Shown here piece by piece: positions 33,933 through 61,684 of a stretch of 64,000 nucleotides of DNA. Under the pieces are notes generated by a model. That model saw nothing but the letters and a program-made list of their open reading frames with translations. It did no database searches and was not told the origin of the DNA. Position numbers and translations under genes: made by a program. The stretch is from Marsupella aquatica. Lineage: Eukaryota > Plantae > Marchantiophyta. The stretch's first letter is position 1. Each line of letters opens with the position of its first letter. The stretch is taken from assembly GCA_973895155.1 (NCBI GenBank), contig OZ316896.1, positions 5,630,066 to 5,694,065 of the forward strand. Direction: 5' to 3'.

Positions 33933-34078
33933 ACAAATATATTTAGAAAAAATTCAAATATTCATGAAATGACATGGCATAATAATATGAACAAATAAGA
34001 TATCACTTTATAACAACCATGTGATTGTTTGTGACTTCATGACTTCATGTAGTAATTAGAGGGCCAAGTTTCACATGT

Positions 34079-35767: not shown

Positions 35768-35907
35768 TCAATGAACTGCCCACAAACACCCTGAGAATCA
35801 CGGATTGACGTGATTGTTATGCACTACATCTTTCATTTTTGTCTTTTATTGCAATTCATTTTTATTAATGTTTTGAATGTCACAACGGTAAAAGAAGGGA
35901 GAACATA

Positions 35908-36254
35908 TTTGTGAATTATCCCATGCCGAGCCTAAGCTCCAAGCACGTGCACAAAAGTTTTTTTTTTTCAAAGTTACGACATTCCTACTTGGATCTATGT
36001 GATATCTATAATTTAATAATCATTTGCCAATTGAGTGAAAATAATTTCGAAGAATTGTGATATCCATGTAAAATATCACATGCCGAGACAAAGCTCCAAG
36101 CTTGCATACATGGGTTTTTCTATCTCCATAAATATTTTGCTCATTTGAAAATAATGATAAAGGTGATATGAAAAGACTCCTAATACGAAATATCCCATGC
36201 CGAGCCGAAGCTCCAAACACAAGCGCACAGGAATCTTTTTATATCCCTCCATTA
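35908..36254 (-). repeat. Right arm of the internal inverted repeat, upstream of the kinase gene
   Basis: Three atc(c/a)catgccgag...agctccaa units at about 35915, 36070 and 36190, reverse-complementary to the units at about 28335, 28455 and 28625. Confidence 0.8.
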
Positions 36255-38862: not shown

Positions 38863-39206
38863 TGTTGAGCATAGACGACAATCGCAACGGCAAGCCCATG
38901 AACCATCCAATGCACAAGAGTCGACACAGAGAGATACGTGGTTCACCTCCTTATGAGGCTACGTCCACGGGAACACACGAGAGCTTTACTGCACTCTAGG
39001 CTGATCGCCATTCCAAGCATCCACAACGAAAGCTCTCTCTATCTCTCAACTAGCTCCGTAACAATGAGCATGAGTTCCCCCTCACCAAGCAAACACCGCT
39101 TGGTTATAGAGTGTGCACAACATGACTAACCTAACCAAGTCTACGACTAAGGTTAGCCTTAACTACGGTACAGTCGTAACTCTAGACCTAAGAGTAAATC
39201 CTAACA
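38863..39206 (-). repeat. 3' LTR of copia A (344 bp)
   Basis: About 8 substitutions and 1 indel relative to 45266-45610 by manual comparison. The PPT (minus strand gtcaagggggatat) is adjacent at 39207-39220. Confidence 0.96.
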
Positions 39207-39397
39207 ATATCCCCCTTGACTCTGGTCTAGGGGAGGGTAAAGACTGCTACCAATATGATTGCTCAGCGAGAAGTTTTGGAAAGAAAAACCAAACCGGTTT
39301 TTCCCTCTTTATACGAGAGTAGATCAGAACTAAGCCGTAGCCTATACAAGGAATGAGTAAGAGCATATCTCAGTATCTACACAAATGTTAAGTAACC

Positions 39398-42300
39398 CTA
39401 CTTGTGAGGCAATTGCAAAACCTGCAACGCATCACGGTGTCTAGAAAAACTCTCCAAAGGAATCACTTTGGTAAAAGCGTCAGCCGGGTTGAGTTTACCG
39501 TCAATCTTGACTAGCTCAAACATATTATCAGACACAGCTTGCCTGATAAAATGATACTTGACATCAATGTGCTTCACTCTACTGTCCATCACCTGGTTCA
39601 CAGCAAAGTGAAGCGCACTCTGACTATCACAATGGAGCTTCACATTCCCCTATGGCAATCCCATTTCAGTGATTAGTCTATCCAACCAAATCGCTTCCTT
39701 TGCTGCTTCCGCTGCTGCAACATACTCCGCTTCTGTAGTAGACTGAGCAATACACCTCTACAAGGTAGACCTCCAACTTATGCATCCACCTCCCAGTGTG
39801 AACACATAACCTGTTGTTGACCTCCTCCGATCCAGATCCTGTGCATAGTCAGCATCTATATAGCCCATCAATGATCTAGCATTATCAGCATGTGCATCAA
39901 ACAGTAGACCATGATCCACGGTACCCTTCAAATACTGAATAATCCACTTCACTGCTTCCCAGTGTACCTTCCCTGGATTTGACATGTACCTGCTCACCTT
40001 GCCCATAGCCATGGCAAGATCAGGTCTAGTACAAGTCATCAAAATACATGAGACTCCCCACTGCCTTGTCATACGGAACCTTTGACATCAACCCCTTTTC
40101 TGTGTCATCCGTAGGACAGAAAGCTGATGACAACTTGAAGTGTGGAGCCAACGGGGTACTTACTGACTTGCTATCCCCCATGTTGAACCTTGCAATTACC
40201 TTCCTTGCATAACTGCCCTGCGTCAACCATAGCTTACCAGCCTTCAAGTCCCTAGTGATCTCCATACCCAAAATTCTCTTAGCTGGCCCTAAGTCCTTCA
40301 TCTTAAACTCTGCACTAAGCAGTGCTTTGAGCTTAACAATCTCAGACCTATCCTTGGCCACAATAAACATGTCATCCACATAAAGTACTAAAACAATGAA
40401 CCCAAAAACAACATTCTTCACCGGTTTAAGATACACACATGGGTCAAACACACTCCTGTGAAAGCCTTGTGCATGGATCCAATCATCAAACCACTTATTC
40501 CATTGTCTTGGTGACTGCTTCAACCCGTACAAGGATCTCAGCAATCTGCAAACCAAATCCTCTTGCCCTTTCTTCACAAAACCTAACGGCTATCTCATGA
40601 AGATCAACTCTTCCACGGTGCCATAGAGGAAAGCTGTGACAACATCCATCTGATCTAGCAGCAGACCAAACATAACAACAAGCACACACAATAGCCGTAT
40701 TGTTGAGTACTTAGCAACTGGTGAGAAGATCGACCTCATTGTAATCCACACCTTTTTCCTGTGTGAATCCTTTGGCTACCAACCTAGCCTTGTAGACCTT
40801 CGATCCACCTCATGTGGACTGATTCTTCAACTTGTATATCCACTTGCAATCCACCACTTGCTGTCCCTCAGGCAGCTTGACAAGCTCCCAAGTTTTGTTG
40901 TCCTTCAGTGACTGCATCTCCGTTTGCATTGCTACAGTCCACTCCTGCTTCTCCTTTGAAGCACTTGTTTCATGAAATGAAGAAGGTTCCCTTTCTTCCA
41001 AAATCAACGCATCACCCTCATCATCAGTAAAAAAGTCCTCCTCTTGCAACTGAGATGAATTAACCCATTGTCCATACCTTGGTGGAGCGCGTACAGTGCG
41101 ACCAGATGTTCTTCTAGCCGATGACTCCGGTTGATCTGCGTGTGCTGGTATAATTTGAAGCTCAGCAACATCCACTTGCTACTCACCAGCATCAACAAAC
41201 TCCTCTGGTTCCTCTGGCACAGGAACCAACTCCATAATTGGAGCAACTCCTTCTCTCCGGTCATGCACCTCATGACCAATCTTCCCCTCAACAAGATCCA
41301 GGATAGGAGATTTTTCTTTGTCAGCACGGGAGACCTGAGTATTCTCCCCCTCTTTCAATAATCTGGATTCATTGAAGGAAACATCCCTACTGACAACGAG
41401 CTTACAGGCAATAGGATCCCATAGCCTATAGGCTTTCACACCACTCTGGTACCCAAGAAAAACACATTTCTTGGAGGTAGGATCCAACTTGGTCCTATTC
41501 TGCTTCGGTGTGAGAGCATATGCATCACTTCCAAAAACTACCAAGCCATGATAGTCTGCTTGCCGCTTATAGCGCATCTCAAACGACGTTTTGAAATTGA
41601 TAGCACTAGAAGGAGAAAGATTTATCAAATAAGCTGCGGTATTCACAGCTTCTGCCCAAAATTCCTGTGGTAAACCTGATTGGCTCAACATACTCCGTGA
41701 CCGCTCCAATAGTGTCCGATTGAGCCTTTTAGCGACACCATTCTACTGCGGAGTATAAACTATGGTGAGATGACGAGTTATCCCCTGTTCTGAACAGTAC
41801 TCTTCAAATTCCGTTGAAGTGTACTCCCCGCCGTTGTCTGACCTTAGACTCTTCACCCTTGTATCCAAACACTTGATTGTATTTTCAGTCTGATTCTCCA
41901 TCTAGGCCTTCCACTTCTTAAAAATGGATAAGACGTCAGACTTATGCGTCATGAAATGAATCCACACAAATCTTGAGTAATCATCAATAAATGATACATA
42001 GTACAACTTTCCAGAATGTGAGGAAGTCGGGGATGGATCCCACACGTCACTATGTATGTACTCAAGAACCGCTTTAGAATTATGAGTTCCAACACCGAAA
42101 GCACAACGATGCTGCTTTCCAAGAATGCAATGCTTACAAAACTCTAATTTACAAGATTGCAAATCAGAAATGAGTCCATTCTTCCGTAAGATAGCCAAAC
42201 CCTTCTCACTCATGTGGCCTAACCGTGAATGTCACAGTTGAGTCATCTCCTCGTGAGACTTGGTTACATTGGCCTCTCCACATATAGTATTGCCCTGTAA

Positions 42301-43715
42301 CACATACAAATTCTTCTGTCTGCTCCCCTTCAAAATCACTGTCTCTCCCGACCTGACTTGAAGTTCACCATCAATAACGCTCCATTGATGACCATTTGAA
42401 TCCAACACACCGAGTGAAATCAGATTCTTACGCATGTCAGGTACATACCTGACTTCGGACACTGTGCGCACAGCGCCATCAAACATTTGAATCTTCACAG
42501 ACCCAATTCCCTCAATTTGATAGGAGTGATCATTTTCCATCAGAACTGAACTGTTTGAAACAGAGTAAGAACTGAAAAACTCACGAATGTAACAAATATG
42601 AAAAGAGCAAGCACAATCAAGAATCCACACATCATCTACTCCCCTAGATGACGTGCACAGGGCATACCCCCGGCTTCATAAAACATACTCATCATTGAGT
42701 AAATCAGCTTCTCCATCAAGCCTAGCCACATTTGTCGATGAAGATTCCGCTGCCTTTCCCTTACAGTCTCGCTTGAAGTGTCCAACTTGGTTGCACTTCC
42801 AACATGTCACTTGCCTCCTCTGAGGGGATTTACCCCTGGACTTAGATCTGGATTTAGATCTAAACTGGGTTCTACGGTCTCCAGTTGGTCGTTGCATACT
42901 CCTCCCACGGTTAATATTGAGGGCAGCACCAGATGATGAAGGCTGTGACGTGATGTACATCTTCTACTGAAGATCATCACTAAGCAGAGAACTTACCACG
43001 TCATTGTATGAAATGGTATCCCTATCACGATACAACAACACTCGTGATAGGGACTGGTAAGATGGAGGCAATGAACTGAGAAGCTGCAGAGCCTTCGTCT
43101 CATCATTCAAAGTCTCCCCAAGATTTTCCAAGTCAATGACCATGTCGTTGAAAGCATCCACATGGTCTTGTAACTTTGTACCAGATTCCTTTATCCTGAA
43201 ACTCATCAGTTTGTAGGAAGTGTAGAGCCGGTTTGATAACTCCTTGCGGTGATACTTGCTCTGCAATTCCGCAAACAAGGACATGCAATCCTTATGTGCA
43301 CCCAACTGCTTGATGATGGGAGGCATGAGATAGAGTGTAACAACCACACTCCCTGCTCCTGCATGCGGTCCCATTGTTTCTCATCAACATCATCTTCACG
43401 AGGGCTCAGCAGTTGGCCCATCCCTGACGCATAGAGCACTCCCTTCACCTGCTTCTCCCATAGCAAGTAGTCAGAGCGCCCATCATACTTTGTCACTTCA
43501 TACTTGGGACCCCCAAGCTTGAAAGTCCCCATCTTCTTCTTTGGCACTACTGTGAGCTCTAGTAGTAGTACTGCTTCCTCCACCACACGCCGCACCAATG
43601 ATGGTACCGGTGTCACGTGCTCTTCCTCCTGCTCCTCTCTCTGTCCCTCTAACCACCGCGGTGATCCTCGTGCTTCAAGTTCCACGTCTTCAAAAAACTC
43701 CTCCGAATCACTCAT
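39398..43715 (-). pseudogene. gag-pol: Copia A gag-pol, with multiple stops and frameshifts
   Basis: YDGRSDYLLW (gag), CWKCNQVGHFKRDC (zinc knuckle), WILDCAC (protease), CKHC...IHSDVW...FIDDYSR (integrase), LYGLKQSPRQW and LYVDDM (RT), CDSQSA...KHIDVKYHFIR (RNase H). Confidence 0.95.
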
Positions 43716-45251
43716 ATGAGAAAATCACAAAAAATATCATTTTTCAACCTTCTCAAAAAACTTGAAACTCAACACCGCCGCGTAGCCCACAAAGCTAGGA
43801 GTCCAATGCTGAAAACCAAAATCAAAATCAAAATTTGACGGAAGAGTTATTCAAATTTCGGTCGGGGTGGGTAAAACCTTGGGAAACTCCCCCGTTTTGA
43901 CCACCTCAAGGAATAACCAAAATACCAAGTACAACTCGTCGTCGGAATCGCGATGTGATCGGTGCGCCGCGTTGCCAACTTCAATGGCTACGACCTCGCC
44001 GAAAAAGAACCAAAAAAGTTACCGTTTGGCGGACGGAATCTTTGTCGGATGGCCAAAAAACAACTCTCTGTTTTTTGGGAATATTCTCGCACAGTCCGAC
44101 AGGTCTCACAGGGGGCCGTTCCCCCTGTCTAAGCGGTTAAAATGGAGGGTCACAGGGCCCAGGATGCGGCACAACCAATGAGGAGGAAGAGAAAAAAATA
44201 AAAATAAAAATAAAAATCAGAAAAAACACTTTAAAGGGGTCTTAAAGCCCCTGGAAAAGGCGCACGTATTCGCAGCCACGCGCGCGTATTCGTGACCAGA
44301 ATCGCGTATAAACTGCCAAAAAACGTGAAAAAACGGGTTTAAAGGGGTCAAAACGTGCGTATTTTTGCATATTCGGGCCGTATAAGGGCGTTTTGGGCCG
44401 TATTTTCACCAGAAAAAGCACATTTTCGCGCTTAAAGGGGTGTGGGAGGCCGGGGCGTGCGCCGGGGCATATGGCGAAGTAGGTTTGTCGGGATTTGAAG
44501 GTATACAGGCCATATGGGGGCAAAAAAATGCCCTAAACTAACCTTAAAATGTGCCAAAAAATGACACAAAGGCAGTGTTACAAACCTCAGGTGCCTCCGC
44601 TTTGGTTTCCAATGAGAAAAGTGATGACTGCCGACATGAAATATTGCCAAATTGCACCGGCACGTCTGCAGCTCCACCAGAGAAGAGAAAACCTCCGCCG
44701 TGTCTTACTCTCTCCGCGTCAAGGGCCAATCTCGGACTCGAAACGATCGCCTCACCACGATCTCTCCGTTGAGCCTCAGCACTTCGCGTTTCTTCCTCCA
44801 AGACAAGCGTCACGACGAGTAATCCGGTTCAGGGAAAAACAAGCACCATAGCTTGTCAAAAAACCAGAACTCAACTTTCACTCGTCACGACGCACTCGCT
44901 CCACAAACGCCAGCAAACCAGGTACCAAAACGACCAGCTCGCTTCAACCTTCAACTTGAGCTATAACATGCGATGCCTCCCGCACCGCACAGCTCACACC
45001 GTTGAAAAAAAAATCTCTGGTCTCTCTCCCGAAATCCCGTCGAACACGAATAAACCCTGAATGATGCAAACTTCAATTCCTCCGCACCACGGATACCGAT
45101 CAGCAAGTTCTAACCACCGTTAGAAAGCCCTCTCACTAACCTATTCGCTCAGCCACACACATTCGAGTTTCATGCGACGAAACCCCAAATGCAACACCAA
45201 TAATGAATGCTGGAAAACCGTCACGAAAAAACCTCGTCACCTCCCAGACAT

Positions 45252-45263
45252 GCTCTAATACCA
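45252..45263 (-). promoter_or_regulatory. Primer binding site, tRNA-iMet type
   Basis: Minus strand TGGTATTAGAGC, one mismatch to the canonical TGGTATCAGAGC, 2 nt from the LTR. Confidence 0.9.
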
Positions 45264-45265
45264 TT

Positions 45266-45610
45266 TGTTGAGCATAGACGACAATCGCAAAGGCAAGCCC
45301 ATGAACCATCCAACGCACAAGAGTCAACACAGAGAGATACGTGGTTCACCTCCTTATGAGGCTACGTCCACGGGAACACACGAGAGCTTTACTGCACTCT
45401 AGGCCGATCGCCATTCCAAGCATCCACAACGCAAGCTCTCTCTATCTCTCAACTAGCTCCGTAACAATGAGCCTGAGTTTCCCCTCACCAAAGCAAACAC
45501 CGCTTGGTTATAGAGTGTGCACAACATGACTAACCTAACCAAGTCTACGACTAAGATTAGCCTTAACTACGGTACAGTCGTAACTCTAGACCTAAGAGTA
45601 AATCCTAACA
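45266..45610 (-). repeat. 5' LTR of copia A (345 bp)
   Basis: TGTTG...TAACA ends, followed on the minus strand by the PBS. Confidence 0.96.
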
Positions 45611-46234
45611 GGCTCCACTACCACGAAGTGAGAGAAATGATGCTGAAAAACATGAATGCATAGCCTCTTAAGTTCTCCTCATGTTCTCGGGGGTCTCACT
45701 CCGCAAAAATCTCATATCACGTGCGACGAAGTATAGGGTCCGTTAATTGGGTTTCTCGGAAGACTTAAGAAGATTTGTGTAAGAACAATAGGGCCAACTT
45801 TATATGTTGGACAACTTGTAAGAATAATAGGGATATTAATATTTTTGACTTTGTAGATGGAAGGCATACAAAGAAGTTAGGGGGTCTTTGTGTCGGACTA
45901 TGTAAAGTACACGTGTCACTATGTCATTGGTACACGTGGCACACATAACATTCCCAATATATTTTCCTAATTTTTCTAATATGTTAACATGGCAAGAATT
46001 TGAGAATGATCTGGTTTTATGGGGACTCACGTTTAGGGTTTGACCAGGATTAAGTTTGAAATTTTTCTGTTTAACGTGTCTCGTTTACCTCAATTGGCCC
46101 TTGTCAGTCTCCTCCCGTGTCGTTTCCCTCCACTGTCCCTTTGGCCCCACCCGCTCTTTGCCTCAACAGAGTCTCTTTTGTTTGTACCTTGCAGCAAATG
46201 GTCTAAACGGGGTCTAAACCAGTTGTGCTCCTGC

Positions 46235-47015
46235 TTGGAGTGAAGGTCGGATCGAGCGAGAGTGTGCTCTCGACTACACTGTTGCTGGAGTGAAGGATCG
46301 ACTCCTGTTGTGCTCTCGACTGCACTGCTGCTGCGGCTGGAGTGAAGGATCGAGCTGCATTGCTGCTGCGGCTGGAGTGAAGGATCAAGCTACGGCTGGA
46401 GTGAAGGATCGAGCTGCGGCTGGAGTGAAGGATCGAGCTGCGTTGCTGCTGCGGCTGGAGTGAAGGATCAAGCAAGATTTCTCGGAGAAGGATCGAGCTG
46501 CGTTGCTGCTGCGGCTGGAGTGAAAGATCAAGCAAGAGTTCTCGGCGAAGGATCGAGCGAAGGAGTGAAGGGGAGAGCGAGAGTGAAGGGGAGAGCGAGA
46601 GTTCTCGGCGAAGGATCGAGCGAAGGATCGAGTGAAGCGCTGCTACTTGGAGTGAAGGGGAGAGCGAGAGTGTTGCGCTCTCGGCTGTGCTGCTGCCGTT
46701 GCAGCTTGAAGTGAAGGATCGACCAAGAGTTCCTGGCTGCGCTGCTGTTTAGAGTGAAGGGAAGAGCGAGACATCTCAGCTGCGCTGCTGCTTAGAGTGA
46801 AGGGGAGAGCGAGACTTCTCAGTTGCGTGCGCTGATTAGAGTGAAGGGGAGAGCGAGACTTCTCAGTTGCGTGTGCTGATTAGAGTGAAGGGGAGAGCGA
46901 GACTTTGCAGCTGCGCTGCTGCTTGAAGTGAACCCGGGAGTGAAGGGGAGAGCGAGACTTTGCAGCTGCGTTGCTGCTTGAAGTGAACCCGGGAGTGAAG
47001 GATCGAGCAAGAGTG
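46235..47015. repeat. Complex subterminal tandem array inside the P-like element
   Basis: More than 20 copies of (g)gagtgaaggatcga / gagtgaaggggagagcgaga cores interspersed with gctgctgc tracts. Confidence 0.9.
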
Positions 47016-48247
47016 TTGCGCTCCGGGAGGTGGGTGTCGAGAGTGTTGCATTGCTGCTTTCTAAAACGGGAGCTGCTAGCTTGCTGAAACGGGAGGTGGC
47101 TACTGTAGGGAGTGTTGCAATATCTCAAACCGGAGTGCCAGGATTGGAGCTGCATTGCTGCGTTGCTCAATCGGGAGGTAGGCGCTGCCTACTTTGACGA
47201 TCGTACTTGCTTGCTTGCTACTATTTGACGCCCAAATCTATCACGCATGGCACACCTAGAGTCGATCTGGTAGCGGTCATAGACGAGAAGCACCTGATCT
47301 GCCCGTTTAGCTTTTCAGCTATAAAATTCCTGTTCTGAGCTCCGTGAATGGCGATAAGCTCTTTGAGTATTTTGTCCTCCAGAGCTCGCCATGCCCTCGC
47401 AGATAAGGTTTGGAGCCACTGCTGAGATCCAGCTCCAACTTCCCAGCCGAATACTAGCTCAGTATTGTCATCATTTGTCTCGACGTTGTCCATACTCATC
47501 TCTCCTTCTGTGTCTGCATCGACGACTTGACGCACATGTTTTTTGGATGCATCGTTAGAGTAACCGCGAGTACAGGTCTCCAATGATTGCACTTGCCATG
47601 ATTGACCACCTTACATGATCTCCATCCGTGGGCTGGACCCCAGGAAAAAAATCTTGTAACTTGACTTCTGTCGTCCCCCACACACCCGCACAAATCTGGT
47701 TCTCTATTACATGCCTTGGTGTCCCGTTGGCTGGTTCCTGCAATTTTCTTTAAGTCATCTAGAAGAGAAGACTTCTTTAAGTGTTTACTCAGCCAGGGGG
47801 GACCACAGCCTCCAGCCATACTGGGTGGCGGGCCTGGTCAAGACGTGGATGACGCTCGTGCTTGATTTTAAATTCTCTTTTGTTTCTCAAGCTTCTGGGC
47901 AAGGGCATTACCATTCTGGATTCTGAACTTGATCCTATTCAGGTTAGCTATTCAGGTCTGTTGAGCGATTGGGTTATTATTTTATTGCTGTAGTAACATG
48001 CATGGCCAATTGGTTGTCTTCATGTAATGGGAAGTTTTTGAAACTTAGAAATTGAATGGTGGTTTCAATTTTGTTCACAGGTTGCAAAAGGAATTGTAGA
48101 GGTTGTCATCAGCGCTTGCAGCAGTGAGCACCAACACTTGCGGTGAAGCAGTTTGCTAGAACACATAGGGTACCTAGTGAATTGTAAGTTGCCTGTCATT
48201 GCACGTCTAATCGTCTGGCCATTCACCGAGTATAAAAAAATAGTGCC

Positions 48248-48646
48248 ATGGCTATATTGGGCATTACATTAGAAGCGAATTATGAGAAGCTCCTTCTGCA
48301 GCATCCAGATGAATGCTGCTGGTGTGAACCTTGTGTCAAGTGCAGGGTTGGTGATGGGAATTTTGAATGGTTCCATTGCTTCTGCTTGAAAATGCGTGGA
48401 AGGCTTGTTACTAGGACATACATGGGAAAGCATGGCAAAGTTGTCACACGTCGTTGGAAGTGCTCTTGTATAAGGCCAACCATTTGGCCTCAAAATGAGT
48501 GTCTTTTACGCAAGATTGTCATCCCGGACACGCTTGACATTGTAGTCCCTGATAGTATTCCACATTCAACTGAGCTTGATATTGTAGCCCCAGATAGTAT
48601 TCCAGATCAAGCTAAGGTTACAACCCATGGATGCTTGACATTGTAG
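48248..48646 (+). CDS. Small ORF with an ING-like PHD-finger pattern and a short acidic repeat (132 aa)
   Basis: CCWC...VKC...EWFHCFCL...WKCSC resembles the C4HC3 PHD with the ING-type EWFH motif, though ligand spacing is imperfect. LDIV(V/A)PDSIP is repeated. Confidence 0.5.
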   Translation: MAILGITLEANYEKLLLQHPDECCWCEPCVKCRVGDGNFEWFHCFCLKMRGRLVTRTYMGKHGKVVTRRWKCSCIRPTIWPQNECLLRKIVIPDTLDIVVPDSIPHSTELDIVAPDSIPDQAKVTTHGCLTL

Positions 48647-48962
48647 TCCCTGATAGTACATGGATGCGTTGTTCATATATGACTAGGCCTTTGTTTGCAA
48701 GGCTGCAATTGTACCATCCATGATATATGAGAATATTTTTCATTCCCATTATGTGGCAAAGTTTTGCAAGCTGGCATTGTATTTATGTATGTCTTGGTTG
48801 GTGGGTGTTCAGGTTGCACTGTGTAGTTGACTTCATCTGGGAGGGAGGTTTGCAGATCATTGGAGCAGGTGCTATGATTAACCTTATCTTTGTCTATGGA
48901 TTGCTCACTATCATCATGTCCCCCTCATATGTGATGTGCTTTGTGATGATTGCAGTTGAACC

Positions 48963-49637
48963 ATGCCGACAAGGACTTCAAACATAAAGAAAGCAACACA
49001 GTCCTCTGACAGAGGAGCCTCTTTGGAAGAGGTATTGCATATTCCGTTGTTCTCTGAGCAAGAGATTCTACAAACTAGCCCTCATGTTTGTGCAATTTGT
49101 GAGCATGGTGGGAAGTTGGTAATTTGTGATGGGCCATGTCACAGGCAATTTCATTATGTGGTTGGAGATGAAGCCCCTAATGACTCTTGCCCCTGTGTAG
49201 TCCTTCCCCTCCATCATGGAGGGAAGCCATGGTTTTGCCCAAATTGTAACCAGGACCAGGCCATGTGTTATGGGTGCCGCACTGTGGGACCGTCACCTAC
49301 AATTGTGCGAAAATGCTCTGATCGTTTTTGTGTACGATTTTATTGCTTTGGGTGTTTGGTAGCTGATGCAAAGTCCTGCCCACTGCATACATGTGTGACA
49401 TGTTATCAGAGTCTTGAGGGTCAGATGGTCAAGAACATGGTACAATGTCTACGATGTCCAAATGCCTGGCATACAGATTGTCTCCAGATGATCAAAAGCA
49501 AAGGGTTCGCTCATGATAGGGACATCTGGGACCATGAAGCACATGGACAACAGCGACAGATGTTTTATTGCCCCCGTCATCCTATTGATCCACACCTCAA
49601 GACTCCAATCAGGGACCACATTTCATGGCTCCAGTGA
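48963..49637 (+). CDS. Stand-alone EDM2-type (NSD-like) composite PHD-finger protein, 224 aa, uninterrupted
   Basis: VCAICEHGGKLVICDGPCHRQFH...WFCPNC...CYGC...C...C.RFYC..C...CPLHTCVTC...CLRCPNAWH..CL...RQMFYCPRHPIDPHLKTPIRDH follows the plant EDM2 PHD region as I recall it (CAICDNGG...FCPNC...CPLHKC...CRRCPKSYH...LIYC..H.ID..L.TP.RDH). Confidence 0.85.
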   Translation: MPTRTSNIKKATQSSDRGASLEEVLHIPLFSEQEILQTSPHVCAICEHGGKLVICDGPCHRQFHYVVGDEAPNDSCPCVVLPLHHGGKPWFCPNCNQDQAMCYGCRTVGPSPTIVRKCSDRFCVRFYCFGCLVADAKSCPLHTCVTCYQSLEGQMVKNMVQCLRCPNAWHTDCLQMIKSKGFAHDRDIWDHEAHGQQRQMFYCPRHPIDPHLKTPIRDHISWLQ

Positions 49638-50132
49638 TCTGAATAATGAACAAACCTATTACTTAGGTTTCAACGTCTTAGTGGGGTATGAGCAAGGCAC
49701 ATACTTAAGGTGCATCATGGGTGGTAGTACCCAATTTTATTAGTGTTGACATTTTGTCATAATTAAGGTCACTAATAGTGCTGCATTTTGATGAGCAGAA
49801 GCACTAAACTTCGGGAATTGTTAGAAAAGCAGGTGAAAAGGATATTTTGTCCAAAGATATTTTATCCAACTTTAGCGGTATATCATGATTTTCACTGAAT
49901 ACATTTGCATGTATGATGGATTGCATTATAAAGTGTTTTGGCCTATTAGCACTTCTATTGTTAAATGTATGCTGACATTATGTACATTACATGAGAATGT
50001 GTATGTTGTCATTGCATCTCTTGAAGATCCTAATGTGTTTCCCTTGTGTGTATTTCAAATGTATTTGTGCAGGTCTTTCTGTTATCAACTCCAAAAGCAA
50101 TGGTGCTATGCATGTTCTAGATTTGTATTGCA

Positions 50133-53100
50133 ATGGCAGCCCCTAAACCCAACTCTGTTAAATTAATACGCAAAGTTGGGGATGACAAGGCTGATTTACC
50201 AATTTGTGTTTTGTCATTCAAAGAAGGACACACCCTACATGATTTTAGGGCTCGTATTGCCTCTACTCTAGACTTTGACTTTGATTTTTGGGATGAGAGA
50301 CTTCCTGGTCGAGTGAAACTTGTACATGAGAAATTAATTGATCTGTCTGAGCTGGATGGAAGAGTTATTGTTGTACAACAAGAACTTGGAGATGGTGGGA
50401 GGATCCCACCAGTACCCTGTCATCCTTGCACTCCTGCATCATTGGGTCCAAATACTGGGACACCACAACTGGGGCCAACGGCACTAGCACCCTCCCCTGT
50501 AAGGGCTTCTTTTGAGTCACAATTGATGGGAGATGTCCCATCAAAGCTATGGAAAGATGAGTGGATGAGGTTAGAGAAATGGGTACATAAGAAGGGTTAT
50601 GGTGATCACAATTGGAGAATTCGTACCTGGGATGAAGGGACAGATGTTCGAGGGCATCTGGAGTGTCTTGAATGTAGGGAAACTTATGGCAATGCAGACA
50701 ACTCTCAGAACCCTAAATCCATCTCCAATTGCTTTAGTAATTTTAAGACCAAACACTTGGTCTTCAATAAGCACAAGGATAACTATTGTCGGAGAAGGGG
50801 CATTCCTTCTACTTTGGTTCAGGTAGCAGACATCTCTGAGAAGCCAGAATATGATCATGCAGACGCCATCAAAGTAGGTGTTGAGATAGTTCAGCGATTG
50901 AATGCTGAGCTTGGGGATGATGGCAAACTATTCTCTATTGTTCCTGATCCCAGTACTCCTGAGTATGTAAACAGGTCTTTCCTGTTTAAGGTTCGCTGTA
51001 CTGTCTGTGGAATGCTTCACACTGACTTGTGCCCCAAGAAGCTTACCTTGGAGCCCAATTTGAGGACACACTTAGTGAGTCGAGATCACTTGGATGCATT
51101 GGAGACTAGGCATGACACAAAAATGCTTGCCTTGAGGTCTGGGAAGAGGGGCAGGCCAAAGAGGACTGATTCTAGGGACCTACATCCTGGTCAGAGCGGG
51201 ATTTTGAAGTTCTTTAAAGATGATGGGTCCCGGACAGGCAGCAGTTCAGGTTCAGGTGTGTGTGAATCTGTTGATCTTGGTCTGAGTTTGCTTTGCTGGG
51301 GATTATGGGTAGAGAGAGGTGTGCCTCGACTGTTATGGAAGGGTATATCTTATGATATTTCTGGCATTTTAGATGATCAGTCTGGGGGAATTACATGGCA
51401 TTGTGAGCCAAGTTGTTGCTTGGATGTTTTCCATCCAAGTAGAGAGAGTGTTGTGAGTATAGCAGGCTGTTTTAGACACAAGGATTGCTTGAGGTTATCA
51501 CAGAATGGAGGAGGATTTGAAAATCTAACTTGTAGTGAATGTGATTCTATAACACTAGAAGATGATTTTCGTGGACGGGTGCACAGGGAAGCGGAAGCAG
51601 TAGTCCACAGAGGGAGCCGAACCACTGCTGGTGGTATACGTTTGGATTATTTGACCAACACAGAGTTAAGAGATCAAGTGCACAACCTGAACTCTGTGCG
51701 ACGAAAAGAGCGTTGGTTGTTAGCTTTGCAGGCTCAGAAAGTATGTGCCTTGAGCACCAGGAAATGAAAACTAGAGGAGTTGTTAGGAGTTGCAGCAGAC
51801 AGGAAGGATTTGAGATTGTTTCTTAGGAGTATTTTGAATGGACACAGGAATGGTGCATTTGGTGGTAAGGAGGGTTTGTGGGATTTCTTGAAGGATGTAG
51901 CTCGCAATTTAGGCAGGAAGCCAAAAGGTAATCGTTACAGTAATAGGACTCGAGCTATTGCTCAGGCTATGTTCCAATTTGGGGGCCGTCAAGTTGCTCA
52001 TTGTTTTGCACGAAACTTGACAGCCCCTAGCCTTGTGACCCTAAAACGTGATAGAGCAAAACTCACACCTTTTCGAACCGGGTTACGGAAGGAAACCTTT
52101 CAGGAGATTGCTAGAGTGTTGTCTGCTGCAAAGCACTCATTGGGCATTGAGGGGGATGTGCCTGTTATCTTTGCTGAGGATGAAACAAGGATCAAAGAAC
52201 GCCCTAGGTAATTGGAACTGGACATTTTTCCAATTGTTTTTTTAATGACTTTACAAGTAGCACTTGGGTGGAATTGCTGTCATATTGAAAAATTGCATGT
52301 CTGTGTTTCAGGTGGGAGGCAAAGTATGATACTCTCATTGGTTTCTGTGGACCTTCAGAGCAGCATGTATGCTCCTATGGTTTGGAAATTCTAGTAGGTG
52401 AAGGTGATGAGGGGTATGATAAAATTGTAAGTACATTTGAACAATGCCCCAAGTGCATGTATGCCCCAAGTGCATGTATGAGTCCTTACCTAAATTGGCT
52501 GTGTGTGCACTTCCAACTTGTAATAAGTTCACAGCTTCTTGGGTACGAGAGCATTGGGTCCAGTTAAAGGCTTTTTGGGATGAATATTGTAGAGCTATGG
52601 TAGGCCCTTTGCTTGGACATGCTAGTGATGGTGATGCACGTCGCCGAAAGCTGATGCTGGAAGATTACAGAGGGCAGAATGGATCATACCCAAGGTATGG
52701 AGTTGGGTGGGAAGGGTGGACATACTCTGTGTCAATTCTACCAAATGGAGATTTGTATGGCTTTGGTGACCAAGACCAACCTCATAATGGGAAAAAGATG
52801 ATAAACCCCTTAGACAGAGTGTCTTCTTTACTGGTGCTAGGAGATCAACATGCATCTTTATCTTATGTAGCTAATGTCTACAATCATTATCCAATTCATG
52901 AACATGGCATGGCTTGGGATGATGTGAATAGGACTGACCGGCAGAATTGGGCAGGTCCACAACGAATAGCAGCAAGAAGAGTGCAGCAATGTCTGAAAGA
53001 TATGTATGAGAGGAGAGATGTACAACATGAACGAAGTTTAGGAACTCAGTTGTACTTGGAGATTTGTGCAGATTACTTAGATATTTTCTTTTCTCCAGTT

Positions 53101-54690
53101 CATGATTTGAGGTCCCGTATTGTGTTAGCATCCAAGGTTTCATTCTTTCTACGTTTGTGGAGATTGTGGTTGAGGTTTGGTGACCATTCAGTGGGTGGGA
53201 ACTTTGCAGCACACACTGAGAAAGACATGATGTCTATTCAGGCTTTTCATGATGTTAACATGTCATGTCATTTCATTGTGCTGTTAATTTGTGCCTTTCG
53301 AGATAAGTTCCCACATCTAGGTGTTCCCTTCCACTTGCTAGGTTCAGATTGTTGTGAGATTTTCTTCAGCAAGGTAGGAGGCATGAGTGGCCATGAGCGG
53401 AATTATGATTTTGGCTCTCTGTTGGATAGTGCTGTTGGACTGAACCGGCTTGCTGCCCTAGAATATGGACCAGAAGGCTTGAAGATAGGTCGTTCACATA
53501 AGAAACAAGATCATGTATGGGGGAAGATTCATCCTATAGGGGAAGGGGAGGAAGCACCAAATCTACTTGACTATTCTCTCATTGAGACTAATGAATTAGT
53601 GGTTGCAGCCCTTAAAGAAGGTTTTGTTGCTGCTAAGGATCTTATGCATCAATTGCAGATGTCTCCACGAAGTTCCTTACCAGCAGCTAGAAAGAGATGG
53701 TGGACATGTCCTTGGGTTATGGAAAGTGAGACCTGGCCACTAGAGGTGGTTCTGAAGGAAGCAATTGTTTGCAATGATTCTGAGGAGCAAGTAGAGCACC
53801 AACCACCAGACATAGGTCCTCGCCCAACTGGAGATTTTCATGAATTGGAAGATCCTGAGGATGATTTGAATAGAATAGATGCATGGTTAACAGAACCAGA
53901 TCCCATTGTTGTTCCTGAGATGCATTCAGATGATGTACACAGAGATGATATACAGTTTGATGTAGACCCCTCAGATGAGCTTGAGACATTAGGTCATGAA
54001 GTTCGGCATGTGTTTGGATCAGTTGTCCATGCTGTAACTAATGTACAGAATCGTACCAAGGTAGTGCCTACTGTTGCTTATGAAGGCAAGGTGATTTACA
54101 AATCCACTCTGGTAAGCCAGTTGGTAGGAAATCCGCATTTGTCAAAAGATAGGCTGACAAGGGTGAAACAAGTGCTATACTATAGTACTGGCAAGAGAAA
54201 AGTGCAAGAAGTCAATCCTAACTCATGTTTTGTTGATGTTGGCACTGATTGTGCAATTGCATTTGAGTCTGATGATAGTCCTGCTCCAAGTACTAGATTT
54301 GGAAAAAGAAAGAGAGGAAAGAATAAGGTTGTGGTGGAGGCAATCTCAGCAGGTAAGAAATATTTTTGGTTGGGTCGGATTGTCCAAATGAGACAGAAGT
54401 ATGGCAGTAGGTGGGGCAATTGTCGGTCACCAATTGATTTGATGGATAGGCCAACTCCACTTGCAGGGCAATCAGGTAACATTTGTGAACTGTTGTTAAA
54501 TTGGTATAGTCCTATTGGTAAGAGCAAAAGTGAATTCAGATATGATACCACTGATTTGAAATGGATGGATATTGAAATGGTCATTGCTAGTGTTAGTTTA
54601 ACCATGAAAGAAGGGGTTATGGATCGTATCTATGTGTTGGATCCAATAGATAGACGTGCTTTGGATCAGTATCTTCAAACAATGGTATGA
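50133..54690 (+). pseudogene. Large P-element-type DDE transposase (~1480 codons), one intron, two lesions
   Basis: ORFs 50133-51767 and 51780-52211 are in frame across a TGA. Intron 52208-52311 (GT..AG) joins to give IFAEDETRIKERPRWEAKYDTLIGFCG. Catalytic candidates: D 52179, ASDGD 52627, DxxH (DQPH) 52774, DRQN, SDCCEIFFS E 53356. There is a frameshift at a 17-bp duplication (52444-52477). Confidence 0.8.
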
Positions 54691-55560
54691 ATATCATGTT
54701 ACTGTTTAGTTTTTGAGAGTCTGTATATATGTTTTATTTTGTTGTTTAGTTTTTGAGAGTCTGTATATATGTTTTATTTTGTTAATATTAGTGGGTGTAG
54801 TGGGATAGGATAGGGGGTGACGGATTGGCAACTTGAGATCCTTTCTCAATTAGGGGTTCAATTCCCCTCCGTCACATGTTACATCTCTCAACATAAGTTT
54901 TAAATGGAGTATGGATGGAGCATGGGATTGGTGATCAATGGGTGGAATGGATTATTTATGTTGTGACCTTAAAGGCCATCCCACTTATGCACGTAAGGTT
55001 TATATTGGGATGACCTTTTAGGTACACAATATAAATGATGCATTGAAATGATCAAAGTTTAAGGTCGACAAAGGTGCAAGAACTGTTGCAGGGCGTGTCA
55101 TGTCTGACATACGACTTCACAAGGTACTGACATAGACTTATCTTTTCTTTCTAGGCATTTTATATTGATATGTGACACTTTACTTCACAAATTATAGGGG
55201 CAATACAATTTGGATTTTAGACTCTTAGAAGAAAGAAAGAGGGAGGAAAAAAAATTTCAACTTAATAAGTATGGGGGTCTAGGCATGAAAACGTCGCATG
55301 TGATGGGGGGGTCCTCCATATAGTGAGACCCCCGAGCTCATGTTTTTCTTTCCTAGGTTTATGGTTTTTATTGAAAGGAGTGTCATTCATAAGGCACCCT
55401 GAGTTAAGTGCACACATCTTAGCATCGTTTGACTGTACCTTTTCTTGGTCACTGTGCTTTTCTTGGCAGATACTTTACTTATATAACAACACTTCTATGC
55501 TCTCATATTTTATTTACTTTCAGATCACTACAAGACAAAAAATAAAGCATGTTCTAGGAT

Positions 55561-57243
55561 CACTAGTACATTTTACCTCCTTTTTCCGATTCTCTCCACA
55601 TCGGATGCCTTTGTAAAATAAAATTTGAAAAACCATATATCCGATACTACTAGCATCGCAACATGCCATTTTAATAGTATCGGATATCGACAATCGGACT
55701 TCTATCGGAAAGTCCGATGGTGGGAGAATGGGAAAGTCCGATGGTGGGAGAATGGGAAAGTCCGATGCTAGGAGAATGAGAAAGTCCGATGGTGAGAGAA
55801 TGGGAAAGTCCGATGCTAGGAGAATGGGAAAGTCCGATGGTGAGAGAATGGGAAAGTCCGATGCTAGGAGAATGGGAAAGTCCGAAGCAATCAAAATGGG
55901 ATATGCATGTCAGCGGACGCGACATGCTCAGGTCACCCATCTCTTCCTTTAATTGGGTTTCTACTTTCATTTGGAACTATGAGCTAGGTGCCCATCTCCC
56001 TTGACATGTGAACTCTTCAAATTTTCTCAACTAATTGGTCACCCATCCCAATTGCTATTCCTCCAACATGAGCTTAACTTTGTGGTTCTTATTCCTTACA
56101 TTGTACATGCAAGCTTAGCACTTTTGTTGTTTGACTTAGAGTGTTTGGGGATTTTATACACTTGTGAGTTTACTAAGACCCATAATTTGGACCCATTCTT
56201 GATCCATTTTTCTCTATCATGCGATTAGATCTTTGCATCAAGTGACCTATTCTAGTTACCCTATTACATTCCCCTAGGAGAAACCAATAGAAATCTGGCA
56301 GGGGTCATTCATCGATAGTAAAGCCCTCCTTCATTAGATTTGATATAGGATAATTATGGCTTATTAGTTATGGATGATATTTTGGTCCTTCCAAAGCCTC
56401 AGCGTCAATGGCTCCTGATTGTCTCATCTTTTATCAACTATGTTGTTGTTGGACTTGCAACAAAGACTACATGGGACAAGCAACCTCCTTCTAGATGATG
56501 TATTTTGGACTTGGCATGTTGAGCACATATTTCCGTAAGGGAACAATATGTTGGGTCTTGGAATGAGGCAAAAACAACACTCAAGTCCATTTGCCTCAAG
56601 TATGAAGTTATTCATGCATGCAAGAATGATTGCATCTTTTGGGAAGAGTATGTCGGTGCAACCACATACCCCATCTAACACATCAAAACTTTTCATTCTA
56701 ACACAATCAAAAAATTTCTTTTTGTCATAACCAGACTTTCCCATACTCCCAGCATCGGACTTTCCCATTCTTCTAGCATCGGACTTTCCCATACTCCCAG
56801 CATCGGACTTTCCCATTCTTCCAGCATCGGACTTTCCCATTCTTCTAGCATCGGACTTTCCCATACTCCCAGCATCGGACTTTCCCATTCTCCCAACATC
56901 GGACTTTGCCATGTTAGCACAATCGGATATAATATCCGTTATTATTAACTACGAAAAGTTTCTGATCAATATTGTAACGCACATCATTTTTGTTACAAAA
57001 AACATCGGACATATCAATCAAAGTTTCTGTTGAGGGATCCGATGTGTTTTCTAACGGATATAATCCGTTTTTTAACGCATCGGAAAGGTTCCGTTGTCAA
57101 TTATATCGGAAATGAAGGTATTCGAAGCCGAGAGTATGGCATATTGCCATTTTTTGATAATCGGAATTTCCGATGCTAAAAGAATCGGACGCCGATTGTT
57201 CACAAAAATTAAGCATCGGAAATCAGCTTAATATGTACTAGTG
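55561..57243. mobile_element. Non-autonomous CACTA (En/Spm) element, 1.68 kb
   Basis: 11-bp TIR CACTAGTACAT at both ends and a 3-bp TSD GAT (55558-55560, 57244-57246). Inverted arrays of a 24-bp unit (gagaatgggaaagtccgatg...) lie at ~55705-55885 and ~56733-56910. Many subterminal ATCGGA/TCCGAT motifs. No transposase. Confidence 0.93.
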
Positions 57244-57921: not shown

Positions 57922-58253
57922 TGTTGAACTAAGACGTCATTCGCAACGACCATACAACCATGACTCATTCCATGCACATGTAGTCGACACAATCTCTACG
58001 TGGTTCACCTTTTCTCCAAGGCTACGTCCACACGAACACTCAAGCTTTACTTTAAGAGTAGACGAACACACATCCTTTCCCTCTTTCTCAAGTTGCTCTG
58101 TTACAATGAGTAAGCACCACACACCAGCGGCTTACACTAGCCCTGGTATATACAAGGTCACACACGACTAATCTAACCTCAGCTAAGATCCTAACTGTGG
58201 TTAGCCTAAGTGCCGTAACCTATGAGTCACAAGACTAAGAGCAATCCTTAACA
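57922..58253 (-). repeat. 3' LTR of copia B (332 bp)
   Basis: TGTTG...TAACA ends, adjacent PPT (minus strand gtcaagggggagtt), and distant similarity to the family A LTR (cgtggttcacc...ggctacgtccac). Confidence 0.88.
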
Positions 58254-58447
58254 AACTCCCCCTTGACTCTAGTCTTGGGGACTGCAATTTCTGCTATCCA
58301 TATGAGATACTCAGCGGGAAATTCTAGACAATCACCTAAAACCATAGGTGTCCCCCTAAAAACCATTTAAGGTTAACTAAGGGTTAACTAGAATTAAGCC
58401 GTAGCCATAACAGGATTGAGTAACCCATATACAGAAATTACATATTG

Positions 58448-61400
58448 TTAAGTTACTCTACTTGTGCTGCAAATGCAAAACTTGCAAGTAGCACGGTGTC
58501 TTGAGTAACTCTCCAAAGGAATCACTTTGGTAAAAGCATCAGCCGGGTTGAGCTTTCCATCAATCTTGACTAGCTCAAACATTTTATCAGACACTGCTTG
58601 CCTAATAAAATGGTACCTGATGTCAATGTGTTTCACCCTACTATCCATAACCTGGTTAATAGCTAGGTGAAGCGCACTTTGGCTGTCACAATGAAGAGTC
58701 ATTTTTCCATGCTCCAATCCCATCTCAGTGACCAGCTTATCCAACCAAATTGCTTCCTTTGCTGCTTCTGCTGCTGCAACATATTCTGCTTCTGTAGTAG
58801 ATTGAGATACACACTTCTGCAAGGTAGATCTCCAACTTATGCATCCTCTTCCAAGAGTAAACACATACCCAGTCGTTGACCTCCTTGTTTCCAGACAGCC
58901 TCCGTAGTCAGAATCTACATAGCCAACCAAAGATTTGGTTTTGTTTGATCTACTATCAAACAACAGACCATAGTCTATTGTGCCCTTAAGATACCTGAGA
59001 ATCCATTTTACAGCCTCCCAATGTACCTTCCCTGGATTTGACATGAATCTACTCACTTTGCCCATTGCTAGGGCTAGATCAGGCCTGGTACATGTCATCA
59101 AATACATTAGACTGCCCACTGCCTTCTCATATGGAACCTTAGTCATCAAACCTCTCTCCACTGGATCCGTGGGGCAGAAAGCCGATGATAACTTGAAATA
59201 TGGAGCCAAAGGAATACTTATTGGCTTACAATTTTCCATGTTGAATCTTGCAAGTACCTTTTCAGCATACTTGCCTTGATTCAACCACAACTGTCCAGTT
59301 TCAAAGTTCCTCGTAATCTCCATACCTAAGATCCTCTTGGCTTTCCCAAGATCCTTCATTCGGAATTCAGAACTCAATTTTGCTTTGAGTTTGTCAACCT
59401 CAGTTTGATCCTTAGCCACAATCAACATGTCATCCACATAGAGCACCAGAATGAGCAAACCAAACACACCATTCTTGACTGATTTTGTATACACACAAAG
59501 GTCATACACCATCCTAGTGAATCCTTGTGCAAGCATGAAATCATCAAACCGCTTGTTCCACTGCCGAGGAGCTTGCTTCAATCCATACAAGGACTTAAGT
59601 AACCTGCAAACTAAACTCTCTTGGCCCTTCTTCACAAAGCCCAGTGGTTGCCTCATGAAAATTTGTTCCTCCAAGGTGCCATAGAGAAAAGCAGTAACAA
59701 CATCCATTTGATCTAACACCAGATCAAAAAACACAACAAGTTGACACAAAATTCGTATCGTGGAATACTTGGCAACTGGAGAGAAGACCTCATTGTAATC
59801 CACTCCCTTCTCTTGAGTGAATCCCTTGGCAACAAGCCTTGCCTTGTATATCTTGTCTCCTCCATCTGAAGAGTTGTCCTTCAGCTTGTAAATCCACTTG
59901 CTATCCACCACTTGTTGATCACTTGGCAGCTGCACCAGCTCCCATGTTCTATTGTCACTTAAAGATTGCAACTCCCTCTGCATCGCTGCATTCCATTCAT
60001 CTTTCTCGTCTGAAATGCACGCCTCATGATAAGAAGAAGGTTCTCCTTATTCCAAGATCAGTGCTCTGTCATCATCATCAGGTGCAATGTCAACATCATC
60101 TAACCTTGATGAATCTGTCCATTGTCCATACCTTGTAGGAGCTCGAGTAGTACGTCTCGATTTTCTAGCTGATGATTCTGGTTGATCTTGTTCTGTTGGT
60201 TGAATTTGAGGTATTCCATCAACAGCCTACTCCTCTTGTTCCATTACCGGAACCAACTCCATTCTCGGAGCACCTCCTTCATTTATGTCATGAAAACTCT
60301 CATGACCAATCTCCCCCACAACATGGTCCAGGATAGGAGATTTATCTTTGTCAGTACGGGAAGCCTGAGCATTATCCCCCTCCTTTGATGATCTGGATTC
60401 ATTAAAGGATACATCTCTACTGACAAGCAACGTACAAGCTTTTGGATCCCATACCTTGTAACCTTTCACACCTGGTTGATAACCAAGAAAAAGACACTTC
60501 TTGGAAGTAGAATCTAGTTTAGATCGATTCTGCTTAGGTGTGAGAGCATATGCATCACTTCCAAAGACTCTCACAACCTGATAGTCTGCGTGCCGTCCAT
60601 ACCTCATTTCAAACGGCGTCTTGAAATTGATTGCACTTGAAGGAGAAAGATTTACCAAATAAGCTGCCATATTTATAGCTTCAGCCCAAAATTCATGCGG
60701 TAAACCTGATTGGCTCAACATACTCCTCGATCGCTCCAATAGTATTCGGTTTAGCCGCTCACAAACACCATTCTGTTGAGGAGTATAAACTGTCGTGAGA
60801 TGACGAGTAATCCCTTGCTCTGCACAATATAGTTCAAGCTCACTTGAACTGTACTCCCCGCCGTTATCTGATCGCAGATATCTCATCTTGGATCCAGTCT
60901 GATTCTCAATTTGGGTTTTCCACTTCTTAAAAGTGCCAAAAACTTCAGACTTGGCGTGTAGAAATGTGATCCACACATACCGTGAGTAATCATCAATGAA
61001 CGTAACATAGTACAATTTTCCAGAAAGTGAGGGAGTTGGGGCTGGACCCCACACATCACTATGTACATACTCAAGTATAGCTTTGGTATTGTGAGTTCCA
61101 ACACCAAAGGTTCTCCTGTGCTGCTTCCCAAGCACACAGTGTTCACAAAAATCTAGCTTAGTAGATTCCAAATTAGAAAGAAGTCCTTTCCTGCGAAGTA
61201 CCGCCAAACCCCTTTCACTCATGTGTCCCAATCTGCAGTGCCATAACTGAGTCATCTCGCCTTGAGATCTAGTTACATTGGCTTCTTCACAAATCACGTT
61301 GCCCTCCAACAAATATAGATTCCTGTGCCGCTTACCCTTCATGACAACCTTGCCTCCGGTTGACACTTGAAGAATACTATCAGCAGAACTCCACCGACAT

Positions 61401-61684
61401 CCATTTGCTTCTAGCATTCCAAGAGAAATCAAGTTCTTTTTCATGTCAGGTATGTGTCTGACATTACTCACTGTTTGCACAGCTCCATCAAACATCCGAA
61501 TTTTCACGGATCCAATTCCAACAATTTGACAAGGATGGTCATTCCCCATCAACACGGAACCGGTTGATACTGAGTAAGAAGTAAAAAACTCTTTTATACA
61601 ACAAATATGATAGGTACAGGCACAATCTAAAATCCATTGATCACCGTTGTTACTGGATGAAATGCAAAGGGCAACATCTGGACT
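58448..61684 (-). pseudogene. pol: Copia B pol (PR-IN-RT-RNaseH), with two stops in the IN-RT linker and a terminal frameshift
   Basis: [70 protein letters not shown]. Stops: TAG at 60229-60227 and TAA at ~60050. Confidence 0.95.

Follow-up and report, generated by a model that had tools for sequence, protein, structure and literature searches.

A stand-alone EDM2-type PHD gene inside a multicopy P-like DNA transposon of the liverwort Marsupella aquatica

The window analysed here is a stretch of 64,000 nucleotides from the liverwort Marsupella aquatica (contig OZ316896.1, forward-strand positions 5,630,066 to 5,694,065). It holds a P-like DNA transposon with two genes on the same strand, a transposase gene and, 495 bp upstream of the transposase start, an intronless open reading frame (ORF) of 224 residues plus stop that encodes a composite PHD cassette of the EDM2 type. 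The features of the element are the following, with the evidence for each in brackets:

45686–55336, plus strand: whole P-like DNA transposon, 9,651 bp (terminal inverted repeat (TIR) pair and target-site duplication (TSD), contig joints, coverage)
45678–45685, plus strand: left 8-bp TSD CTCATGTT (identical to 55337–55344)
45686–45700, plus strand: left TIR, 15 bp perfect, with a weaker match to about 50 bp (inverted-repeat search)
46227–47032, no strand assigned: left subterminal tandem repeats with a GAGTGAAGG core and periods of 24–60 bp (repeat search)
47221–47610, minus strand: decayed Myb-like fragment (Pfam Myb_DNA-binding, E 0.009, below the cut-off; PDB WER, E 0.81)
48236–48646, plus strand: Cys-rich 136-aa stop-to-stop frame (3′ part differs in other copies)
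48954–48959, plus strand: candidate splice acceptor AG and in-frame TGA, a putative 5′ UTR junction (sequence inspection)
48963–49637, plus strand: stand-alone EDM2-type composite PHD ORF, 224 aa (translation, Pfam, relatives, profile search, ligands)
48963–49088, plus strand: basic leader of the PHD ORF, aa 1–42 (conserved F[ST][DE].E motif; family comparison)
49089–49628, plus strand: PHD cassette, aa 43–222 (24 Cys/His positions, terminal TP.RDHI.W motif)
50133–52207, plus strand: predicted transposase exon 1 (tblastn of homologues P0013, P0021 and P0042)
52208–52311, plus strand: predicted GT-AG intron of the transposase (gap in homologue alignments, splice sites)
52312–54690, plus strand: predicted transposase exon 2 (homologue alignments, motifs, fold of a homologue)
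55322–55336, minus strand: right TIR (inverted-repeat search)
55337–55344, plus strand: right 8-bp TSD (identical to the left 8-mer)

An earlier, sequence-only reading of the locus had described an uninterrupted, intronless 224-aa ORF that ends right after TPIRDH and consists almost entirely of the PHD cassette. Translation of 48963–49637 agrees with the first two points, the C-terminus being TPIRDHISWLQ with the stop two codons past the cassette; the third holds for residues 43–222 and not for residues 1–42, which form the basic leader. The ORF is not a chance frame, as its Pfam and PDB matches, its relatives and its zinc ligands attest. PHDvar_NSD matches above the Pfam cut-off (E 5.8e-8), PHD-1st_NSD at E 2e-5, and three PHD-type families match below the cut-off; the PDB match is to PHD1-3 of NSD2 (E 4e-6). 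Six stand-alone relatives of 213–304 aa are found at E 1e-51 or better with 44–83% identity, and all 24 zinc-ligand positions of the composite 2.5-PHD cassette are present, which are predicted to make up six zinc sites. A domain search found no kelch domain and neither the SET nor the PWWP domain of NSD/ASHH methyltransferases. There is no RFD-like N-terminus either (Pfam DNMT1-RFD is present in host matches), its place being taken by the 42-aa leader, and no C-terminal N6-adenine methyltransferase-like (ELP) domain, the relatives ending likewise. A search for longer fused forms, a weak test, returned one CHD-type host protein only.

The TGA at 48957–48959 is in frame with the PHD ORF and lies directly behind the candidate acceptor AG at 48954–48955. 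Most other copies carry an additional T after 48958, which keeps the TGA in frame at two codons upstream of the ATG. With this in-frame TGA in both allele forms, an upstream exon cannot be fused to the ORF via the 48955 acceptor, as had been argued for the window copy; splicing into acceptors inside the ORF is possible from the sequence. Upstream, the Myb-like fragment is probably separate, passive cargo. The Cys-rich frame at 48236–48646 has no Pfam match at E 10 and contains the words WFHCFC and WKCSC, which look faintly PHD-like; the stretch 48582–48682 is replaced in other copies, as seen in contigs of the sequencing runs.

The location of the ORF inside a transposon, also proposed from the sequence, is borne out by the perfect 15-bp TIRs and the 8-bp TSD that delimit 45686–55336, and by contigs of three of four runs (X1, X3, X6) in which position 45677 is joined directly to 55337. 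These joints may stem from other copies of the target repeat; the ends of the element are fixed in either case. The P-like element itself sits inside another high-copy repeat (45611–45685 and 55337–55560), with many loose ends at 45610 and 55560. Seven of the nine listed runs contain part of the stretch, and four, which together with the others fall under four organism codes, contain at least half of its words; the run with the highest word share may be the window's own source. In another run (X7, share 0.06) only short, unrelated PHD matches fall within the ORF. All 30 bins of the element are covered in 4/4 runs, by pieces whose identities span every band from below 90% to above 99%, and the ORF is thus not confined to this one copy. 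Linkage of the ORF to the transposase is seen in the window, no listed contig spanning both genes. The P-like DNA transposon is multicopy, and the PHD ORF forms its second gene, separate from that of the transposase.

Exon 1 of the transposase encodes a C2H2-like N-terminal part and the first catalytic Asp, in EDET at 52176, and exon 2 encodes ASDGD (52621), DQPH, which represents D(2)H (52774), SDCCE (53344) and a C-terminal barrel domain. The window copy is broken by a premature TGA at 51765–51767 in exon 1 and a small deletion near 52468 in exon 2. Of 49 homologues, those with names come from Riccia; ASDGD, DQPH and SDCCE are kept in at least 90% of 29 homologues. Pfam gave no match to the window transposase, its N-terminal part included, where THAP was looked for (this part is modelled with low confidence in the homologue), and the sequence profile gave no PDB relative and one weak TNP-like RNaseH match (E 0.012, for 1 of 29). 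The assignment was settled by fold. The model of P0013, a homologue 41% identical to the C-terminal part of the window transposase (pLDDT 69.8, core above 85), finds Drosophila P transposase (6p5a) first in both structure searches, with Foldseek at E 4e-11 and with VIA-align at Z 22.7 and an rmsd of 3.2 over 355 residues, the next match having Z 8.6. The motifs EDET, ASDGD, DQPH and SDCCE also fit the signature described for the P superfamily, DDE plus D(2)H (PMC8230255). From model and motifs, the host element is predicted to be a transposon of the Drosophila P-element type; assignments to Kolobok, hAT or CACTA were ruled out by TSD length, motif and fold.

Members of the P superfamily normally have short TIRs and target duplications of 7–8 bp, their ends usually read CA..TG, and an N-terminal THAP domain is usual but not universal; the ends of the window element read CT..AG. 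With the Drosophila P element and THAP9 (6p5a, 6pe2) it has in common the catalytic fold (via P0013), DDE plus D(2)H, short TIRs and the 8-bp TSD. It differs in having no Pfam THAP match, in a much longer transposase with a C-terminal barrel, in its plant host and in its second gene. The predicted barrel (54040–54690) weakly resembles BAH and chromo domains (Z 5.6–6.7, possibly a common arrangement); if this resemblance is real, one element would encode BAH-like and PHD modules together.

Directly to the right of the P-like element lies a non-autonomous CACTA-type element (55561–57243), which has CACTAGTAC termini, a 3-bp duplication and a 24-bp repeat in inverted arrays; at about 55527 there is a second CACTACAAG start. 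The region is flanked by two minus-strand Copia LTR retrotransposons (38863–45610 and 57922–64000) that are related to each other, with 74% likeness over 3.8 kb; the LTRs of the first are 97% alike. A hAT-like element with long imperfect TIRs and a broken DUF659 transposase on the plus strand occupies 28296–36254, and the protein-kinase-like ORF inside it (34463–35167, minus strand) makes it another transposon with cargo. Host genes lie at 21863–26140, where an exon resembles a zinc-binding dehydrogenase and another gene encodes an amino-acid transporter (Aa_trans).

When 1.84 billion representatives were searched with a profile, short stand-alone proteins related to the PHD ORF ranked first (E 1e-79 to 1e-29), with EDM2-like host proteins next. 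The stand-alone family comprises 22 sequences, the window ORF included (counted over P0001-07, P0058-62, P0064, P0067, P0080, P0083, P0123, P0206, P0215-17 and the locus L001). The six relatives of 213–304 aa end in DHISW[LI], with one exception that ends 19 residues later. In a quick tree of 60 rows all 16 family rows form one clade with a support of 98, and in a careful tree of 41 rows, which left out 19 long-branched, partial or redundant rows, 13 family rows form one clade (100/100) on a long stem. Cys or His fills 420 of 433 ligand cells across 20 family rows, and His is replaced by Cys at ligand 128 in 17/21 family sequences versus 0/140 hosts. Several members are truncated or broken; the loci L001 (1.9 kb) and L002 (1.5 kb) have a stop and a frameshift, respectively, which is the usual look of transposon copies. 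Neither of these two short sequences includes a transposase, and the transposon context is seen for the window lineage only. Names from sequenced plant genomes were found for none of 16 family proteins checked, and the viral and prokaryotic contigs scanned yielded no relatives. Two further candidate loci, L003 and L004, were ruled out as family members, being NSD-type SET genes from a different group of organisms.

The family is kept by purifying selection. Past the leader, the window ORF, L001 and L002 have 49–55% residue identity; in 3/3 pairs silent sites are saturated (pS 0.78–0.90, with four-fold sites alike in 7/30, 9/29 and 10/29), against a pN of 0.31–0.36. For the near copies, variants were taken from 40 of 57 variant rows, which were attributed to contigs according to depth. 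The ORF contains 38 of them, and 37 were used, the row dropped (49107) being a replacement present only in a short, indel-bearing X6 contig. Eighteen of the 37 are silent and 19 are replacements, where 21–27% silent would be expected (p 0.0002–0.004), which corresponds to a pN/pS of 0.28–0.39. The signal is uneven: in one X4 piece, which is about 8% diverged and differs at 13 positions over 156 bp, 11 changes are silent and 2 are replacements (p < 3e-5), another X4 piece is neutral (3 silent and 10 replacement changes among 13 of its 16 differences), and the remaining 11 variant rows (4 silent, 7 replacement) are not significant. Low-depth contigs contain frameshifts and, in one, a 268-bp deletion, and in long pieces of three runs the ORF is intact with 0–2 differences. 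Such a mix of constrained and neutral copies is as expected of a functional transposon gene with dead copies. Neutral evolution and Pack-type passive capture, both of which the sequence-only reading had raised as ways in which it could fail, do not describe the ORF, given its identity of about 30% to known hosts and a pN far below pS in the old and most of the young comparisons. The observed/expected ratio of CpG is 0.30 in the PHD ORF, 0.24–0.32 in the transposase and 0.61–0.64 in two host exons; the depletion in both element genes reflects long residence in methylated DNA.

As to the origin of the cassette, an EDM2-family source had been proposed and is upheld by the family profile: its best host matches are EDM2-like (E 1e-33 to 1e-14), with Selaginella EDM2 named among them, and NSD-type cassettes follow far below at E 1e-14 or weaker. 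Identity to host cassettes is about 30%. Among the top host matches are EDM2-like proteins of Riccia, Marchantia and Calypogeia without the methyltransferase motif (Riccia R1sor_003797, Marchantia Mp1g03210 and Mp4g03050, M. paleacea Mapa_015239, and Calypogeia), which rank 2–5 among host matches and end 2–46 residues past the cassette. They belong to a liverwort clade of EDM2-like proteins without a methyltransferase domain (P0065, P0066, P0068, P0069, P0091, P0106). Two characters link this clade to the family: CxRCPxxW is found in 16/16 family members, 6/6 liverwort paralogues and 9/130 other hosts, and an aromatic-x-H/Q before the last ligand pair in 16/16, 6/6 and 4/130. Unlike the family, the liverwort paralogues have a long N-terminal part in five of six cases, and none has lost the acid before PHD1 or the His at ligand 128. 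Marchantia Mp4g03050 is almost PHD-only, and its leader, PRPKMKASK, resembles that of the family. Short PHD-only EDM2-like proteins also occur in Triticeae and Miscanthus (clusters P0071 and P0087), in a clade separate from the family.

The careful tree places the family inside the EDM2-like group (84/96) and leaves its position within that group unresolved. In the free quick tree the family falls beside the NSD-type outgroup, probably owing to long-branch pull; a tree that forces the family together with the liverwort paralogues has a log-likelihood 13 above it (p-AU 0.835), and joining the family to canonical EDM2 is not rejected either (p 0.30). On these characters and trees, the likeliest donor would be a liverwort EDM2 paralogue already without the methyltransferase domain. 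The earlier view that the transposon captured only the reader module needs revision accordingly in one respect: the two shared characters point to paralogues that already ended at the cassette. The PHD ORF is a derivative of the EDM2 cassette and, in architecture, not a member of the EDM2 family.

The residues that bear on histone binding have changed in part. An acidic residue within the four positions before Cys1 is present in 0/19 family members, 115/122 hosts and 6/6 liverwort paralogues, and the acidic stretch before PHD1 has gone with it (the median net acid is 11 for hosts against about 0 for the family). In other PHD fingers, the acid before Cys1 contacts H3K4. An Asp after Cys3 is kept in 18/19 family members, with an acidic residue after Cys2 in 19/19; we take this Asp to occupy the same place as the H3R2-binding Asp of BAZ2B. 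In the published account of the BAZ2B PHD finger, the equivalent Asp is described as binding H3R2 (PMC5663869). According to published work, Arabidopsis EDM2 combines 2.5 atypical PHDs with acidic domains and a methyltransferase-like domain, its PHDs recognise H3K9me2 among other marks, and the ASI1-AIPP1-EDM2 (AAE) complex promotes distal polyadenylation (PMC7529245, PMC7472560). The sequence-only reading started from H3K9me2 reading by Arabidopsis EDM2 and suggested that the captured module could recruit or titrate the host complex or guide the transposase to chromatin. Because the acidic residue before PHD1 has been lost, family-wide and together with the acidic stretch, neither H3K9me2 reading nor AAE recruitment can be assumed from the cassette.

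The leader has a feature of its own. [AST]-R-x-K occurs in 14 of 17 family leaders; among these 14, position 7 is Ala in 9 and position 9 is Lys in 9. Compared with the leaders, the order of H3 residues 1–9 scores 67; 4000 permutations of the same letters average 47.5, and two of them reach 67. A stricter pattern, drawn up after the fact, is found in 11/19 members versus 2/114 hosts. The motif was noticed after viewing the data, and the members are homologous; the H3-like leader may be a nuclear localisation signal. It is absent in the window copy, P0002 and P0060, and since the window lineage is the recently amplified one, a mimic is not needed for success.

Our tentative explanation, held with rather less than even confidence, is that the PHD protein serves the element as a chromatin reader or decoy that would blunt host silencing. 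Capture would have occurred long ago, most likely from a liverwort-type EDM2 paralogue without a methyltransferase domain, by way of a copy that was spliced or poor in introns. The basic leader would bring the protein to the nucleus, and there it is predicted to bind the tail of histone H3, PHD1 retaining the H3R2-type Asp; with the acid before Cys1 lost, the mark preference of PHD1 is likely unlike that of Arabidopsis EDM2. Lacking a catalytic or RFD-like domain, the protein would act by occupancy, in competition with host EDM2-type readers or silencing enzymes on element chromatin, and in most relatives the H3(1–9)-like leader would serve additionally as a decoy or a self-inhibiting peptide. 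Several points weigh against this anti-silencing role. The CpG depletion means that, over time, the element did not stay clear of CG methylation, and the loss of the acid before PHD1 may amount to weak or no histone binding. One near-copy piece is neutral, the window copy has no H3-like leader, and no transposase is seen beside a distant relative (L001, L002). The missing family names from sequenced plant genomes, set beside the many named transposase matches from Riccia, weakly suggest that the PHD gene is an optional accessory and not an obligatory transposase subunit, though annotation may miss the gene.

Somewhat unlikely, and drawn by analogy, is a role in targeting or tethering, in which the PHD protein would bind the transposase and steer insertion to marked nucleosomes, as RAG2 and RAG2L do for RAG1-type transposases. 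The tandem arrangement of the two genes on one strand and the retained H3R2-type Asp would suit such a partnership, and invertebrate RAG2L proteins are reported to have a PHD finger, one of which binds methylated H3K4 (PMC7204232). The weakly BAH/chromo-like C-terminal domain of the transposase also fits, a pairing of BAH and PHD being described in plants (PMC7718874). The ORF has no kelch or other recognisable docking domain, however, and, as a weak counterpoint, no stand-alone PHD protein is named from Riccia genomes rich in transposase relatives. We regard as unlikely a more far-reaching form of the decoy idea, in which non-seed-plant transposons have an ancient, purpose-built decoy, an H3(1–9) mimic fused to an EDM2-derived reader, that would block or soak up H3K4/H3K9 readers and writers at element chromatin and ride the land-plant P branch and possibly other superfamilies.

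It is quite improbable that the ORF is passive cargo, that is, a member of a host gene family of non-seed plants, selected in the host, that the element took up recently and carries neutrally. Short PHD-only EDM2-like host proteins do exist (Marchantia Mp4g03050, Triticeae, Miscanthus), but they fall outside the family clade; no distant member is seen inside a transposon, yet broken members are frequent in the family and the CpG depletion matches that of the transposase. One near-copy piece is neutral and the decayed Myb fragment rides in the same element, against which stand the 11 versus 2 changes in the piece about 8% diverged from the window element and the intact ORF in long pieces of three runs. 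AAE recruitment, by which the protein would read H3K9me2 like Arabidopsis EDM2 and draw AIPP1/EDM3 and ASI1/IBM2 to yield full-length transcripts through element heterochromatin, is very improbable: the cassette is of the EDM2 family with all ligands present, and the marks and polyadenylation described above for EDM2 and AAE would suit it, but identity to host cassettes is low, the stem branch is long, the acidic flank and the RFD-like and methyltransferase-like domains are gone, and the likeliest donor is a paralogue to which no function has been assigned. That histone reading was lost altogether, leaving a zinc module for DNA binding or protein scaffolding, e.g. on the subterminal repeats, is hardly probable at all, since the lost acidic flank, the His-to-Cys change at ligand 128 and the presence of such repeats are set against an H3R2-type Asp in 18/19 and an acidic residue after Cys2 in 19/19 members.

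DNA transposons reported to encode a PHD finger are the AcademHP elements, which belong to another superfamily, occur in animals and fungi and have a PHD that is not known to derive from EDM2. With Arabidopsis EDM2 and AAE the protein of the window element shares the 24 Cys/His positions as well as the YC..H...TP.RDH motif at the end of the cassette; it differs in being transposon-encoded, only distantly similar and devoid of the RFD-like and methyltransferase-like domains and the acidic flank, and it is known from its sequence. RAG-like transposons with RAG2L are likewise two-gene DNA transposons whose second gene, as described, includes a histone-binding PHD finger; RAG2L combines a transposase-binding kelch propeller with a single, unrelated PHD, whereas the window ORF is an EDM2-type cassette only (PMC7204232). 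The VANDAL elements, too, are plant DNA transposons with an accessory gene, VANC, for which a role against silencing is proposed, but VANC is reported as a sequence-specific binder of element DNA with no PHD and with demonstrated activity, while the activity of the window ORF is a proposal (PMC5735166, PMC10398659).

A search of the openly accessible literature, main texts only, found no report of an EDM2-derived PHD in a transposon, of a PHD-carrying plant DNA transposon, of a land-plant P element or of the liverwort EDM2 paralogue clade. In a survey of 1007 plant genomes P elements were sought by means of Pfam, and its accessible text does not mention PHD (PMC12973397); a term search in the accessible text of two recent works on captured or TE-encoded genes returned neither PHD nor EDM2 (PMC13317346, PMC13547354). 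The system described here is real, conserved and unusual, and it belongs to a kind already known, the transposon accessory chromatin gene.

Few counter-silencing proteins of plant transposons are known, and the known ones act via DNA sequence. If the reader-or-decoy explanation is true, a catalytically empty copy of a host heterochromatin reader represents a different strategy, in which a host anti-silencing reader, perhaps with a histone mimic, has been turned to the element's use. With an intronless protein of 224 aa, the persistence of DNA transposons in methylated plant genomes becomes testable, and the finding also marks an undescribed clade of liverwort EDM2 paralogues and a P-like transposon lineage in land plants.
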